Source of the DNA: a virus
DNA length: 12,883 nt
Direction: 5' to 3' (one strand)
Virus genome (UHGV): UHGV-1980648
A model generated the notes under the pieces. It ran no database searches and had not been told where the DNA came from. It saw only the letters and a list, made by a program, of their open reading frames with translations. Position 1 is the first letter of the stretch. The number at the start of each line of letters is the position of its first letter. Of this stretch, positions 3,156 to 10,613 are shown in pieces. Position numbers and translations under genes: made by a program.

Positions 3156-3926
3156 ATGGAAACCGTATTTGACGCACTGAAAGCAATGGGAAAAGCCACA
3201 TCGGTAGAACTGGCCGCGCGACTTGATATCAGTCGTGAAGAGGTTCTCAACGAGCTGTGGGAACTCAAAAGAAAAGGCGTCGTTGATAAAACTGGTCACA
3301 CCTGGTTTCTGGCTGGCGAAGGTGAATCCCGGGTAACCGAAGAGCGGCCAGTAAAATCTGAAGCACAGGATATGCTGACCGGGGAGGTCGAACAAAAAGT
3401 TACCGCAGACATGATGATTGAGTTTATCGGTCAGGATGGGGCTAAAACGTGTGAGGAACTGGCGGGTAAGTTCGGTGTCAGTACTCGCAAGGTTGCTTCC
3501 ACGCTGGCGGTGGTAACCGCAACGGGGCGGCTGGCACGCGTTAATCAGAACGGTAAATTTCGTTACTGCATGCCGGGCGATAATTTACCAGCAGAGCCGA
3601 AAGCCGCGCTGGTAACGGAAAGTGATGGTAAGGCCTTTCCTCAGCCAGCAGGTGCTGCGTTACCAGTCCGGGAAGCCGCAACACAGGAAGAAATTAAAAC
3701 AGAAACTGTGGCGGACATTGTGCAGTCGTTGCCATCGTTTACCGAAACGCAAGCAGATGAGCTGATTTTTCCGTCCCTGCGCAGGGCAAACCTGGCGCTG
3801 CGCAGGGCGAAAAGTGATGTTCAGAAGTGGGAGCGAGTCTGCGCCGCGCTGCGGGAGCTGAATAAACACCGGGATATTTTCAGTTCGATTGCTGATATTC
3901 CGGTTCATTCACCGACAACAAAGTGA
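3156..3926 (+). CDS. Hypothetical protein with two winged-helix-like segments (resembles the DUF1627-type proteins found after P in lambdoid prophages)
   Basis: ATG 3156 with GGAGG 7 nt upstream (the ORF track starts at a TTG at 3138); internal duplication [17 protein letters not shown] / [17 protein letters not shown]. Confidence 0.5.
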
Positions 3927-3941
3927 TCTCCGGAGGTGCTT

Positions 3942-4373
3942 ATGACAAGAGCATTTACACCAGAAGAGCGGGAAAAAATTAAGGGGCTGATCGTGGAATT
4001 CGTACGCCTTAACGGACGAGGCACGATTCGGCAGTTATCGGATGAAATTGGTGTCAGTCATGCGTCTGTCGGTCGTTTATGCATGGAGCTGGCCGCCAGT
4101 GGTGATGTTTACAATTCCGGTTACGGAGTATTCCCGTCTGAACAGGCTCGTAAGGACTGGCAAAATGCCCGCAAAAAACTCTCAAGGGCAAAGTCGAAGA
4201 AACCGGTTGTCGTTGATCCAGACCTTATCCGGGCATTACCAGATGGGGAAATACGGCGCTACGACAGACGCTACAACACAATTTGTCGCGAGTGCCGTAA
4301 CAGCGAAACGATGCAGCGTGTGCTGGCATTCTGGCGAGGGAGTGCAGAGGGATTGATGTTCTCCCCGTCGTGA
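3942..4373 (+). CDS. Hypothetical protein, N-terminal wHTH-like, Cys-containing C-terminus
   Basis: ATG 3942 with GGAGG 5 nt upstream (the ORF track starts at a GTG at 3936); 143 aa; segment IRQLSDEIGVSHASVGRLCMELAASG. Confidence 0.5.
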   Translation: MTRAFTPEEREKIKGLIVEFVRLNGRGTIRQLSDEIGVSHASVGRLCMELAASGDVYNSGYGVFPSEQARKDWQNARKKLSRAKSKKPVVVDPDLIRALPDGEIRRYDRRYNTICRECRNSETMQRVLAFWRGSAEGLMFSPS

Positions 4374-4405
4374 ATGACGGGGGCTTACGTGTTCAGAAAA
4401 GTGAT

Positions 4406-5080
4406 TCATATAGAGGCTGAATCTGATCTTTTTTGTTCACGTCTGGCTTCCACCATTGCAGGCAGAGTGAAGGCGTAGACTAAAAACATTTCGGTAAAAC
4501 TCAGGATCTGGCTTGCCTCAATTGGTGTGAAAACTTCATCTGTATGAACTGCTTTATTGGCATCAATTCGTACAATATGAGCCCATTCCTTCATCTGTTC
4601 AGTGATCAGGCCTTTTTTGTAAATCATCTGAATACGTTGCGACAGCGATTCTTTTCCTGCTTCATCGCCGAGCAGTTTTTTCGTGGAGATATCGAGGACT
4701 CTGCGACAAAGAATAACCACTGTGTCGTACCGCCTCCTCTGTAAATCCTCTTTTGCCTCAACAAAAGTACGGTCTGCAACCGGGGGCGTATATTCTGGTG
4801 CGGTAATTTTTTTGACCACAGGATAGATCTTGCGGAAACGGTACTGGCTATTTCCTGAAATCAGAATATCGAGGTCTTTTTTCTGGCTTTCCGCCATGGG
4901 ACCGTGATAGTGGTCTGATGGGATTTCAACAATAGCAACACCTCCTCGATGACAACTTCTGCATACAAAAGCGACGTTAAAAAAAGGTGTTTTTTCAATT
5001 TGTTTTTCGGCAAATGCCTCAATAACAGCTCGCTCTTTTAAACAGTGCGGGCATGTGATATCAAAGGAGACTAAACCCAT
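4406..5080 (-). CDS. Zinc-ribbon plus DUF4145-like domain protein; candidate defence / abortive-infection cargo gene
   Basis: 224 aa from the ATG at 5080 (GAGGAA RBS); N-terminal CPHC...x26...CRSC zinc ribbon; C-terminal helical region LSQRIQMIYKKGLITEQMKEWAHIVRIDANKAVH resembles DUF4145 from memory; opposite orientation to the flanking phage operons. Confidence 0.6.
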   Translation of the reverse strand: MGLVSFDITCPHCLKERAVIEAFAEKQIEKTPFFNVAFVCRSCHRGGVAIVEIPSDHYHGPMAESQKKDLDILISGNSQYRFRKIYPVVKKITAPEYTPPVADRTFVEAKEDLQRRRYDTVVILCRRVLDISTKKLLGDEAGKESLSQRIQMIYKKGLITEQMKEWAHIVRIDANKAVHTDEVFTPIEASQILSFTEMFLVYAFTLPAMVEARREQKRSDSASI

Positions 5081-5324
5081 GGATATTCCTCGCGAAATTA
5101 AAGAAATTAACGAAATCATTGAGGTTACTGATCGCCCCGAGTTTACCCTCATGCGTCGTTATGAAACAGGAACCGACGAACAAAAATACATCATGGTTGC
5201 AGCATTGGCTGTGATGGCGATAGAAAGGGAGCGAAGGGAAAAGGACGTAATGGTTATTCCTGAGAGAAATGATTCACCGGATTTGAGATGGCAGGAGCCG
5301 GAGTGGGATGTGGTAATCCGGTGA
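5079..5324 (+). CDS. Small acidic hypothetical protein (81 aa), divergent from the zinc-ribbon gene
   Basis: ATG 5079 with AAGGAGA RBS 8 nt upstream; its start codon overlaps the minus-strand start of the 4406-5080 gene within CATG; no recognisable domain. Confidence 0.3.
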   Translation: MDIPREIKEINEIIEVTDRPEFTLMRRYETGTDEQKYIMVAALAVMAIERERREKDVMVIPERNDSPDLRWQEPEWDVVIR

Positions 5325-5378
5325 TTGATATTTCTCTGGGGTAAAGCGCCGCCAGAATGACGGCGCGGTAGTGGAGAG

Positions 5379-5687
5379 TTAAACGAAGCGGATCTGGAGT
5401 TTTTTCCCTGTAGCACGGGCGAATTTTTTCAGTGTGGCAAATGATGGGCCGCTTGTACCTGATGCAAGATTGCTTTCCATTCTGGTTATCGCAGTCGCTT
5501 TTGTTCCCATACGTTCAGCAACTTCAGCCTGGGTTAAGCCAGCTTCTTTTCGTGCTGCCAGCATTTCATCAAGTAGTGCGAATTCATCGGCGATGGCGTC
5601 GTATTCTGCTTTTACTGCGGGGTTAGACAACATTTTTTCTACCATTTCATCGTGTGTCATGGTAGGTGGGGTACGTTTACCAGTCAT
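5379..5687 (-). CDS. XRE-family HTH antitoxin (HigA-like)
   Basis: 102 aa; HTH LTQAEVAERMGTKATAITRMESN; AAGGAGG RBS; overlaps the upstream toxin gene by 11 nt. Confidence 0.8.
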   Translation of the reverse strand: MTGKRTPPTMTHDEMVEKMLSNPAVKAEYDAIADEFALLDEMLAARKEAGLTQAEVAERMGTKATAITRMESNLASGTSGPSFATLKKFARATGKKLQIRFV

Positions 5688-6006
5688 GCTTAACCTCCTT
5701 CATTCTGGTTTCAGCTTTTCTAAGCTCGGCAGGTGGAGTTTTTTGCGTTTTCTTTACAAAGCTATGCAACATAATGATTCGCTTTCCTTTTAGCGTGCAG
5801 TAAAAAACACGCCCTATGCCTTCCGAGCCCTTAAGGCGGATTTCAAACAAACCGTCGCCAAATGCCTCTGTATGCGGGGAACCAAGATTAGCTCCGTAAA
5901 TACGCATTTTCTCCGTGTACCGAATGTACCGGGCTTGTAAGGTCTCAGGAAGAGAAAGGATCTCAGCTTCAACCTCGTCACTGTAGTATTCGATAATGTA
6001 GTTCAT
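5677..6006 (-). CDS. RelE/ParE-superfamily toxin, phage Gp49-like / HigB-like
   Basis: 109 aa from ATG 6006 (alternative ATG at 6018); MNYIIEYYSDEVEAEILSLPETLQARY...FGDGLFEIRLKG...RVFYCTLKGKRIIMLHSFVKKTQKTP is typical of this family; toxin-first order with HTH antitoxin. Confidence 0.75.
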   Translation of the reverse strand: MNYIIEYYSDEVEAEILSLPETLQARYIRYTEKMRIYGANLGSPHTEAFGDGLFEIRLKGSEGIGRVFYCTLKGKRIIMLHSFVKKTQKTPPAELRKAETRMKEVKHDW

Positions 6007-6048
6007 GAGAGTAAACATAACAAATTTGTTATATACATTCAAGGTATG

Positions 6049-6078
6049 TTGACGACAACACATATCCGGGATTATATT
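6049..6078 (+). promoter_or_regulatory. Rightward sigma70-type promoter restarting the nin-region operon
   Basis: TTGACG (6049-6054), 18-nt spacer, TATATT (6073-6078); its -35 overlaps the -35 of a divergent minus-strand promoter for the toxin-antitoxin operon (TTGTCG, complement of 6053-6058, with -10 TATATA at complement of 6030-6035). Confidence 0.4.
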
Positions 6079-6140
6079 CTTCGCACGCCAGCAAAATCTG
6101 GCGTCGGGATTTGCACCCCGGATATTCAACCGCGACAGAC

Positions 6141-6162
6141 ACACGCCGCGAGCGTGTTTTTT
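6141..6162 (+). terminator. Intrinsic terminator or attenuator in the leader upstream of the ORF6N gene
   Basis: ACACGC-cgcga-GCGTGT followed by TTTTTTGTT; preceded by two further hairpins at 6086-6103 and 6104-6120. Confidence 0.5.
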
Positions 6163-6326
6163 GTTGTCGTAAGCACACGCACATCTGAATTATGGTGGGG
6201 CGTATGGGGGAGCCGAAAGGCTCGCCGGTTGGTTGATCCGGTAGTGCAAACCCTGTACGTCTCACCACCCAAAGATTTGCACCTGACGGTGGTGATAGTT
6301 AAATTCATCAACCAGAGGGCGTTGTC

Positions 6327-7028
6327 ATGGCGACTCAAATTTCCGTTGAAACTCTTTCCCCAATTGCCTACAACCAGATCCCCGTAATTACTACAGAATT
6401 ATTGGCGCAATTGTATGGCACTGAAACAGTCAATATAAAAATGAATTTTTCCCGTAACTCTGCGCGATTTGTACAGGGAAAACATTTCTTTAAGTTGGAA
6501 GGGAATGAACTACGTGAGTTTAAGCACAGACTATCTTTAAGCGAGTCTGTTAGCCGCGAGGTAACAGAAAGTTACTCTGTGAAAATCGCCCGCAATGTTC
6601 GCTCCCTCATCCTCTGGACAGAACGCGGCGCAGCCCGTCACGCAAAAATGCTCGAAACCGATCAGGCGAGGGAAGTGTTCGAAAAACTGGAAGACTGCTA
6701 TTTCAGCCAGGGAAAAACAGCACCAACCGAACAGCAGCCGCAGATTCAGCCACAATTCACAGCCGAGGAAATCATCCTCCTTTGCTACATGCAACTCTGG
6801 ATGGAAAAAGCCCAGGACCTTAGCAAGCAGCTGTACCCCATAATGAAAGAGCTGAACTCCTCATACACGAACAAGCTGTATGACATTGCGTTTGAGACCA
6901 TCTACATGGTGACGAAGAACAGAGACGCGCTACTAAGGGAGGTAACACGTCTCGACATGTCAAGTTCCGTTATCCAGCGGGCCATGCCAATGCTGAAAAG
7001 CCTGCGGGCAAGACAATTTGAATTCTGA
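6327..7028 (+). CDS. ORF6N-domain protein, putative antirepressor-like regulator
   Basis: 233 aa; N-terminal IPVITTELLAQLYGTETVNIKMNFSRNSARFVQGKHFFKLEGNELREFK...LWTERGAARHAKMLETDQAREVFEKLEDCYF fits the ORF6N pattern from memory; GAGGG RBS. Confidence 0.55.
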   Translation: MATQISVETLSPIAYNQIPVITTELLAQLYGTETVNIKMNFSRNSARFVQGKHFFKLEGNELREFKHRLSLSESVSREVTESYSVKIARNVRSLILWTERGAARHAKMLETDQAREVFEKLEDCYFSQGKTAPTEQQPQIQPQFTAEEIILLCYMQLWMEKAQDLSKQLYPIMKELNSSYTNKLYDIAFETIYMVTKNRDALLREVTRLDMSSSVIQRAMPMLKSLRARQFEF

Positions 7029-7612: not shown

Positions 7613-7625
7613 NNNNNNNNNNNNN
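7613..7625. other. Assembly gap (13 N)
   Basis: Run of n characters in the sequence. Confidence 1.
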
Positions 7626-9926: not shown

Positions 9927-10123
9927 TTGTCTGGCTGCCGGAGAATTTGTTAAAAATTGCATCGCGTGGTGAATCCCCCTCAGCGGCGGGGCATCTGGCA
10001 AAGTGTATGATCCAGCGAACATGCAAATTCAGTAGCCAGGCTGAATTTACCGGGAGGCACCTGGCACCATGCGACAGACAGAAATTAGGCTATACTTCAG
10101 CCCCTCTCCGGAGGGGCTTTTCT
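9927..10123 (+). repeat. Paralogous unit A: promoter-like box, structured core, intrinsic terminator (candidate small RNA gene)
   Basis: TTGTCT (9927-9932), 17-nt spacer, TTAAAAAT; core closed by CGCGTGGTG (9963-9971) pairing with CACCATGCG (10065-10073); internal hairpin AAATTCAG/CTGAATTT; terminator at 10099-10123. Confidence 0.5.
10099..10123 (+). terminator. Intrinsic terminator of unit A
   Basis: GCCCCTC-tccg-GAGGGGC followed by TTTTCT. Confidence 0.6.
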
Positions 10124-10312
10124 GTGCAGGATGTGTCACAGTTTCCTGAATTCTGAGTACTGTCCTGTTACTCAGGGTGCTATATTTTCTGACGTGATGA
10201 AAGTCTGCCGGAAGGCGGAACGTATCGGAAATGACCCAGTAGAGAAAACGTTGACTCAGATACCGATGCTGAGTTACCGGGAAACCGGCATCACATGACC
10301 GCTATCCTTCCA

Positions 10313-10335
10313 GGCTCGCTCCGGCGGGCCTTTTT
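10313..10335 (+). terminator. Intrinsic terminator, a third copy of the terminator module with a covarying stem
   Basis: GGCTCGC-tccg-GCGGGCC followed by TTTTT; flanking sequence (gctatccttccag...) is homologous to the 3' ends of units A and B. Confidence 0.55.
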
Positions 10336-10395
10336 ACTGCAGAAAACAGTTTTCCCGTAAAATGCCACGTTACTCACAATTCAGGCTGGCGATTA

Positions 10396-10606
10396 TTGTC
10401 TGGCCAGCGGGAAGTTTGTTAAAAAAATATGGCATGGTGAATCCCCCTGTGCGGAGGGGCATATCAGCGACAGGTGTTTGGTCACACCCCTTATCCTTTC
10501 TGGTGCGGGTTCAGGTGCTGATACTGAACTCACCGGGAGGCACCCTGCACCATGCATGAACGGTACATAGCGCTACTCTCCAGCCCCTCTCCGGAGGGGC
10601 TTTCTT
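10396..10606 (+). repeat. Paralogous unit B: promoter-like box, structured core, intrinsic terminator (candidate small RNA gene)
   Basis: TTGTCT (10396-10401), 17-nt spacer, TTAAAAAAATAT; core closed by GCATGGTG (10432-10439) pairing with CACCATGC (10548-10555); internal hairpin GTTCAG/CTGAAC; shares blocks TGGTGAATCCCCCT and CACCGGGAGGCACC with unit A. Confidence 0.5.
10582..10606 (+). terminator. Intrinsic terminator of unit B
   Basis: GCCCCTC-tccg-GAGGGGC followed by TTTCTTGTTG. Confidence 0.6.
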
Positions 10607-10613
10607 GTTGGAT

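Follow-up and report, generated by a model that had tools for sequence, protein, structure and literature searches.

Two divergent lambdoid phage genes that share a CATG start site: conservation of the pair and a possible lysogeny–lysis module

The viral genome UHGV-1980648 was analyzed over a stretch of 12,883 nucleotides (nt), referred to here as the window, in which two divergent genes have their start codons within a single CATG palindrome. The leftward gene encodes a protein with a zinc ribbon and a DUF4145 domain of the HEPN ribonuclease (RNase) type and is referred to as the DUF4145 gene or RNase gene. The rightward gene is a small open reading frame (ORF), referred to as the partner. 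Sequence comparison identifies the window as the early right (nin) region of a lambdoid, Stx-phage-like Escherichia coli prophage. In this study, the junction between the two genes, its conservation in related loci and the selection acting on both frames were analyzed, and the possible reasons for the overlap were weighed.

The CATG junction and its two genes

An initial annotation of the window had placed both start codons within the palindrome and had given each gene a good Shine–Dalgarno (SD) sequence lying inside the first codons of the other gene. All of this is borne out at the coordinates in Table 1. The two start codons share 2 nt, with no intergenic DNA at the 5′ ends, and each SD sequence lies antisense within codons 2-6 of the opposite gene. 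With an intergenic distance of zero, the sequence of each gene must accommodate the ribosome-binding site (RBS) of the other, as well as any promoter. The predicted pairing with the anti-SD sequence, well above background for both sites, is -8.7 kcal/mol for the partner and -5.9 kcal/mol for the DUF4145 gene in the window. Over 27 distinct junctions the median is -4.9 kcal/mol for the partner and -5.9 kcal/mol for the DUF4145 gene, compared with -1.5 kcal/mol at random positions, and pairing of -4.4 kcal/mol or stronger is found at 63% of the partner sites and 81% of the DUF4145 sites against a background of 13%. The DUF4145 SD sequence is kept although partner residues 2-6, its antisense coding stretch, vary in amino-acid sequence.

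Table 1. Coordinates of the features at the junction and in the two genes, numbered from the first nucleotide of the window
Feature	Position	Strand	Basis or location
CATG palindrome with both start codons	5078-5081	both	Sequence
Plus-strand start ATG (5079-5081) opening an 81-codon ORF with TGA stop at 5322-5324	5079-5324	+	Sequence
Minus-strand start ATG (complement of 5078-5080) opening a 224-residue ORF down to 4406	4406-5080	-	Sequence
Partner SD sequence AAGGAGA, 8 nt before the plus-strand ATG	5064-5070	+	Antisense within DUF4145 codons 4-6
DUF4145 SD sequence GAGGAA (complement), 5 nt before the minus-strand ATG	5086-5091	-	Antisense in partner codons 3-5
Gene for zinc ribbon and DUF4145 (HEPN-type RNase domain), 224 residues	4406-5080	-	Pfam, phrog_1305, invariant residues
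Partner (ORF81), phrog_8371 family, 81 residues	5079-5324	+	phrog_8371 match over 1-81 of 81, E = 6.8e-56
Partner core, residues 1-57, three predicted helices	5079-5249	+	Conservation and AF2
Partner tail, lineage-specific, variable, predicted disordered	5250-5321	+	Conservation and AF2
Candidate -10 element TAAACT for the DUF4145 gene, in partner codons E21-F22-T23	5140-5145	-	Predicted; 5.2 bits
Second CATG, partner Met25 against an in-frame upstream minus-strand ATG	5150-5153	both	Sequence and homologue N-termini
GC hairpin GCGCCG...CGGCGC, flanked by the stops of the partner and of the HigA-like gene	5347-5368	both	In 13 of 13 haplotypes
Terminator-like hairpin and T-run inside the antisense of the DUF4145 gene	4657-4675	+	Consensus scan only

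The minus-strand frame is open further upstream, to an ATG at 5152 that would give a protein of 248 residues, and the position of its start was therefore compared with that of its relatives. Homologues down to 40% identity (n = 39) have lengths of 212-224 residues, and their alignment begins at MG[ILM]L..CPHC; three differ in length, through upstream extensions (233, 245) or truncations. The 24 extra codons of the longer form (MRVNSG...) are the antisense reading of the conserved PEFTLM of the partner, an artefact that is also present in P0145. The homologue lengths and N-termini rule out the longer form and, together with the antisense origin of the extension, establish 5080 as the true DUF4145 start. 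The RefSeq/PGAP annotations of phage 75/02 Stx and of E. coli chromosomes give the same 2-nt overlap. A second CATG, at partner Met25 (Table 1), accounts for conflicting annotations elsewhere, namely a 57-residue plus-strand ORF from Met25 in PhiR5_2 and minus-strand ORFs of 245-248 residues.

The DUF4145 domain is recognized by Pfam PF13643 (E = 3.9e-9, 36.9 bits, cutoff 23.1), and the protein matches phrog_1305 with E = 1e-63. Two CxxC pairs (C10/C13 and C40/C43) and the residues R171, N175 and H179 are invariant in 24 homologues. The AlphaFold 2 (AF2) model has a predicted local distance difference test score (pLDDT) of 87.6, with a beta-rich N-terminal half at 85-95. Weak matches to zinc ribbons (RPB9, L44) were obtained with the profile of the protein, and a weak match to the HEPN toxin 7ae6 (probability 0.94) was obtained with Foldseek.

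This combination recalls RAZR (PD-T7-4), a zinc-finger protein with a DUF4145 HEPN RNase domain that causes abortive infection, with catalytic residues R146 and H154 (PMC13017515, Nature 2026). RAZR assembles around ring-shaped phage proteins as its trigger and is non-toxic alone (PMC13017515). In both proteins an N-terminal zinc-binding domain precedes a C-terminal DUF4145 HEPN domain, R146/H154 of RAZR and R171/H179 here have the same R-x7-H spacing, and both genes are found in enterobacterial mobile elements and encode about 210-225 residues. Unlike RAZR, the genes described here form a distinct clade, are reversed within lambdoid early operons and have a conserved divergent partner that shares their start. 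RAZR has been described as a single-gene system. An overlap with an integrase gene is frequent according to Vassallo et al. (2022, PMC9519451), and gene overlap may thus be a recurring trait of the RAZR/PD-T7-4 defence family in other contexts. DS-38 from DefensePredictor is likewise an E. coli protein with a HEPN domain and a zinc finger, likened here by description only, and its zinc finger differs from that of PD-T7-4 (bioRxiv 10.1101/2025.01.08.631726).

Six relatives of the partner, at 25-50% identity, match phrog_8371 with E values of 1e-5 to 1e-13. From an essentially single-sequence alignment, AF2 predicts helices at residues 3-16, 20-30 and 33-57, with a pLDDT of 88-92 for residues 1-55 and below 50 for residues 59-81. 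Pfam holds no family that matches the partner or its diverged relatives, and nothing significant was found on comparing its model with BFVD and PDB folds or its profile with PDB sequences. The initial annotation had called the ORF acidic, which is true of the copy in the window (isoelectric point 4.6) but not of the family, with isoelectric points of 5-8.

In one E. coli assembly (locus L035, 2884-3252) an in-frame fusion joins the initial 45 codons of an ASCH-domain gene (phrog_625) to the partner from its residue 5 onward. The chimera is open over 122 codons and has no canonical start at the joint. A descent of the partner from an ASCH-domain gene, suggested by this chimera and by a match to phrog_625, was rejected: hhalign of the partner alignment against the ASCH alignment gave a probability of only 0.1%, and hence no homology to the C-terminal two-thirds of ASCH proteins, and tblastn matches of the L035 ORF to ASCH genes end exactly at the joint.

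Conservation of the pair and selection on its frames

The partner was first sought by a word-indexed search of proteins, by tblastn of phages, in one genome per species and in IMG/VR with an alignment confined to E. coli sequences; these searches yielded nothing beyond relatives from E. coli and Shigella with at least 87% identity. These narrow matches, together with weak selection within E. coli, initially led to the suspicion of a spurious or orphan ORF, a view that was overturned once the genes adjacent to distant DUF4145 homologues were inspected. In Yersinia prophages, where the DUF4145 protein is about 49% identical, the same CATG opens an ORF of 71 residues, MNIPYLSDEIQRMLQNADRPEFNLMQRYETSSDEQK..., which is 52% identical to the partner of the window over residues 1-52. 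The same arrangement is found in an Enterobacter chromosome and in further viral contigs, and three more clusters came to light in an exhaustive HMMER search.

Relatives of the DUF4145 gene at 40-100% identity were surveyed in 80 IMG/VR viral loci. CATG is present at the DUF4145 start in 55 of these, and in 54 a partner homologue begins exactly there. Conversely, of 52 loci with the partner, 49 also have the divergent DUF4145 gene, and the remaining three belong to a single E. coli arrangement (context B). In a more divergent pair (L212) the CATG is again common to both genes. With homologous genes on both sides in 54 of 80 loci, as well as in Yersinia and Enterobacter, the overlap is far from chance. 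The two proteins have diverged in step, with correlated pairwise identities (Mantel r = 0.75, 0 of 2000 permutations). The genes are inherited as a pair, and the overlap at the junction is conserved across about 50% protein divergence, without variation among loci that have both genes.

The surroundings of the pair are also largely constant in orientation. The DUF4145 gene is located between ren-like and ninB genes, against the direction of the operon. In related loci the large ORFs flanking the pair on both sides amount to 11,216 residues on the strand of the partner and 849 on the opposite strand, which makes the DUF4145 gene consistently the lone reversed gene in a co-directional phage operon.

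The possibility that only one of the two genes is real, left open by the initial annotation, is excluded by comparison between lineages. In the partner, differences per site are 0.56-0.82 at synonymous and 0.19-0.40 at non-synonymous sites, and the ratio of non-synonymous to synonymous rates (dN/dS) is 0.1-0.3 where estimable, compared with about 1 in other frames. The mean information at codon positions 1, 2 and 3 is 1.11, 1.30 and 0.64 (p = 2e-8; 17 representatives below 88% nucleotide identity). For the DUF4145 gene the signal is already clear among 14 E. coli haplotypes, with 35 changes (21 synonymous and 14 non-synonymous; dN/dS, here omega, 0.23, p = 2e-5; 5:6:24 over the codon positions). 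On these substitution patterns, both genes are judged to be genuine coding genes under purifying selection at the family level.

In E. coli, 12 of 13 haplotypes keep the partner frame open. In two assemblies (L036 and L037, near 3150) it contains an in-frame tandem duplication of 15 nt (ERERM) at the end of helix 3. The segment 5083-5370 (290 bp) remains 94-100% identical while both of its flanks are exchanged; the hairpin at 5347-5368, which has no plus-strand T-run, is its right edge, and the sequence beyond is swapped. In loci that lack the DUF4145 gene (phiSTEC1589-Stx1c, strain 2013C-3033) homology begins at 5083, and a new GAGG-N7-GTG start opens the same frame. Mutations that disrupt the core of the partner, namely a nonsense allele in L031 (GAA to TAA at 5163) and a frameshift in P0019, both occur in the minority of E. 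coli loci from which the DUF4145 gene has been lost; their confinement to such loci, in tiny numbers, is consistent with the partner depending on the RNase and with its restraining the RNase in the lytic cycle. In two IMG/VR loci (L102 and L103), however, the CATG and the DUF4145 gene are kept while the partner is truncated or degenerate (32 and 39 codons), and the partner can therefore decay even while the RNase gene is present.

Expression of the pair and explanations of the overlap

From the overlap and the reciprocal RBSs, the initial annotation had predicted mutually exclusive translation or transcription. Exclusive translation in the literal sense does not hold, because the genes are read from mRNAs of opposite strands and ribosomes do not compete on one RNA. 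As judged from its sequence, however, the junction resembles an excludon, in that transcripts of the divergent genes would necessarily overlap and be complementary across both RBSs. A switch at the level of transcription, mediated by such complementary transcripts, is plausible, and it is strengthened by the conserved overlap, by the co-divergence of the two proteins and by the position of a lone reversed defence gene within a co-directional operon. Cis-antisense switches between divergent genes are known from the Listeria excludons, P22 sar/ant and lambda oop/cII. As in the excludons, the genes at the present junction are divergent, their transcripts would overlap, each RNA would be complementary to the RBS of the other gene and reciprocal expression would be expected; a difference is that here the very start codons overlap, in a manner conserved to the single base.

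The reading that we prefer, while regarding it as an even call, is that the pair forms a conserved two-gene phage module, with a divergent RNase-type gene and a small partner expressed reciprocally in lysogeny and lysis. In the lysogen the pR-driven rightward operon would be repressed, making the partner mainly a lytic product, and the RNase gene would be transcribed leftward, either from a weak promoter within the partner coding sequence or by read-through from a toxin–antitoxin cassette on its right. During lytic growth, antiterminated rightward transcription would run antisense across the entire RNase gene and would then expose the SD sequence and ATG of the partner. The RNase gene would thus be turned down, through transcriptional interference and an RNA duplex over both RBSs, just as the partner was made, in an excludon-like manner. 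More speculatively, the partner may restrain the RNase, so that ring-forming proteins of the phage itself would not set off abortive infection in the lytic cycle.

The partner sequence itself holds a candidate promoter for the RNase gene (Table 1). The Phe codon of the partner is TTT and the Gln36 codon is CAA in all 18 representatives (18 of 18 each), and these invariant codons imply that TAAACT and a TTG are frozen on the opposite strand, as indirect support for such a promoter. The synonymous third positions behind the T-A...T of the TAAACT element vary little or not at all among these representatives. In a lenient position weight matrix (PWM) scan of the minus strand, the best score upstream of the DUF4145 start was 5.2 bits, with 6.0 bits in the hairpin region near 5377-5354. 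Several lineages have in common, at -81, a TTGATC-16-TATCGT site that scores 9-12 bits. Native expression of a RAZR homologue was obtained with 200 bp of DNA upstream. The hairpin at 5347-5368 is possibly a weak terminator for leftward toxin–antitoxin transcripts, and that at 4657-4675 is a possible tR2-like stop for unmodified, non-antiterminated rightward transcription ahead of the junction.

A number of observations weigh against such a module. The surveyed loci are partly redundant and reduce to 33 unique pairs, or to 18 representatives when nucleotide identity is kept below 88%. A strict promoter scan of the minus strand over 5081-5400 gave no site, and the best lenient scores there are 5-6 bits. 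The match of the DUF4145 protein to the PADLOC PD-T7-4 model is marginal and partial (E = 0.002, 15.5 bits); no RAZR chain was matched in the PDB by phmmer, profile or Foldseek searches, the presence of RAZR chains there being uncertain, and the protein can thus be called RAZR-like in its architecture, the sole ground for a possible membership of the family. No partner was found within 700 nt upstream in 25 of the 80 DUF4145 loci, mostly in the most distant clade, and the partner occurs without the RNase gene in two E. coli arrangements (contexts B and C). Since RAZR is a non-toxic single-gene system and these 25 loci have no partner, the partner is not required for the RNase. Within E. coli, the partner shows a near-neutral rate in the 14 haplotypes, with 31 changes (11 synonymous and 20 non-synonymous; 7:10:14 over the codon positions) and an omega of about 0.64 that is not significant (p = 0.16). 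Its changes per site are 0.136, compared with 0.052 for the DUF4145 gene, and a tolerated 1-nt deletion at 5305 rewrites its last eight residues. In the same species, the DUF977 gene used for comparison shows 96 changes (52 synonymous and 44 non-synonymous; 25:17:54), with an omega of 0.31 (p = 2e-8). The synonymous-biased conservation by which the initial annotation proposed to check the 81-residue frame is present across lineages but not significant within E. coli.

The strongest alternative, which we consider less probable but still to be taken seriously, is a frozen accident of genome compaction, in which a reversed defence moron landed flush against an ordinary nin gene of unrelated function and the overlap has since been kept solely because each RBS lies in the other gene and changes at the joint, by recombination or indels, are selected against, with no coupling between the genes. 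Any insertion or deletion at the junction would harm two RBSs, which is a further point for this explanation and against a module, and any tightly linked gene pair would co-diverge. The separate occurrence of the two genes noted above, both in the 25 loci and in contexts B and C, also suits an accident, as does the fact that RAZR-type proteins act alone and that neither scan found a strong embedded promoter in the window. Morons of lambdoid nin regions, such as toxin–antitoxin and exclusion genes, resemble the DUF4145 gene in being reverse-oriented accessory genes with mosaic-swapped neighbours; an ordinary moron, however, brings a promoter and a terminator of its own, located in intergenic DNA, whereas the DUF4145 gene has no 5′ intergenic DNA. 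Outside E. coli the partner was never found away from a DUF4145 gene (49 of 52 loci overall) despite the mosaic shuffling around the pair, its synonymous sites are frozen opposite the promoter-like sequence, and the disrupting mutations cluster in loci without the DUF4145 gene. These three observations weigh against an accident.

A more elaborate form of the two-gene module, which we regard as rather unlikely, assigns the partner a role in self-immunity as an anti-RAZR protein combined with a hard-wired toggle at the CATG. The RNase would be made only in the lysogen, and on induction antisense silencing and the inhibitor together would spare the host from a suicide triggered by portal or recombinase rings; the copies without the RNase gene (contexts B and C) would serve as anti-defence genes in portable form, directed at the RAZR-like systems that resident prophages carry. 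Phage products that restrain a HEPN RNase or an abortive-infection gene of the same phage include T4 Dmd, which acts against RnlA and LsoA, and the aba element, which acts against BstA in prophage BTP1. The likeness is that a small phage product or linked element allows the phage its own lytic cycle, with an interaction between partner and RNase that is here purely inferred. Dmd is likewise small, at about 60 residues, and searches of the PDB and BFVD revealed no similarity in sequence or fold between it and the partner.

It is improbable, in our judgement, that the plus-strand ORF is a decaying remnant in E. coli whose segment has been kept because it provides the DUF4145 gene with a promoter and 5′ leader and serves as a linker for recombination between swappable cassettes. 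The absence of significant selection (omega 0.64, p = 0.16), at a power that gives a clear signal for the DUF4145 gene, would fit a remnant, as would the nonsense allele, the tail frameshift and the truncated variants, the conservation of the 290-bp segment between changing flanks and the replacement in E. coli of Gly46, which is otherwise nearly invariant. However, the frame has stayed open in 12 of 13 haplotypes and through a 15-nt duplication, a new SD sequence and GTG start have been acquired where the DUF4145 gene is absent, and the ORF belongs to a family under purifying selection and has a confident helical model.

A classical toxin–antitoxin system, in which the lysogen would produce the partner alongside the HEPN RNase as the antitoxin required to keep the enzyme harmless, is very improbable: HEPN RNases are often toxins, the two genes are tightly linked and co-diverge and toxin–antitoxin cassettes occupy the same locus, but the genes are divergent instead of forming a co-directional bicistronic operon, the 700 nt upstream hold no partner in 25 of 80 DUF4145 loci, RAZR was reported to be non-toxic when over-produced alone (PMC13017515), and the partner shares the orientation of the lytic operon, whose genes are repressed in the lysogen.

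The problem that the two-gene module would address is how a prophage that carries a RAZR-type suicide gene avoids triggering it by its own ring-forming proteins. In the literature searched, no mention was found of a conserved partner for zinc-finger HEPN defence genes. The clade of RAZR-like genes described here in lambdoid phages has a small partner joined to it by shared starts and reciprocal RBSs, the tightest joining possible. If the coupling is functional, the pair would be a compact natural toggle between lysogeny and lysis and a candidate source of an inhibitor of a HEPN defence RNase, as well as a test case for selection on divergent start-codon overlaps, which are usually dismissed as annotation errors. 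If it is a frozen accident, it would still be a well documented overlap that has locked two genes together through about 50% protein divergence.

Neighbouring elements of the window

The region 3900-6400 of the window is 97.0% identical to Escherichia phage PhiR5_2, with 100% identity over 4950-5400; its identity to the Shigella phages 75/02 Stx and POCJ13 is about 90%. In the records of these phages, the genes on the left of the junction are cI, cro, cII, O, a DnaC-like gene, DUF1627 and a DUF977/Ren-like gene, and those on the right are an ORF6N antirepressor-like gene, ninB and rusA. The neighbouring genes in these records are on the plus strand throughout, cI excepted, which is leftward. 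Two cassettes in the window run counter to this direction, namely the DUF4145 gene and a HigB/HigA-like pair (5379 to about 6006) that profile matches assign to the Gp49 family and to a helix–turn–helix (HTH) protein, with the partner ORF placed between them.

The leftward cassette at 5379-6006 on the minus strand occupies a swappable slot across related prophages (loci L003-L008 and L035-L041). The slot holds the Gp49/HTH pair in the window and elsewhere HigB-like/HTH_3, ParD-type or HVO_A0114/TumE pairs, sometimes two in tandem, and the exchange point lies immediately to the right of the conserved hairpin at 5347-5368.

An Rfam scan of 5040-5400 revealed no RNA family. Further to the right, Rfam matches on the plus strand comprise isrK at 6085-6162 (75 bits), the C4 antisense RNA at 6188-6272 (74 bits) and an a1/b1 target at 6072-6124, and a terminator-like hairpin at 6141-6157 is the 3′ end of isrK. 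The three Rfam matches lie directly upstream of an ORF6N/P22_AR_C antirepressor-like gene at 6327-7028 on the same strand, and together these elements are a c4-ant immunity module of the P1/P7 type within a lambdoid nin region. A run of 13 N at 7613-7625 reflects masking or an assembly gap. Members of the STnc100 small RNA family occur in tandem, with strong copies on the plus strand at 9934-10127 and 10403-10612 (139 and 130 bits) and a weak copy at 10163-10338 (30 bits).

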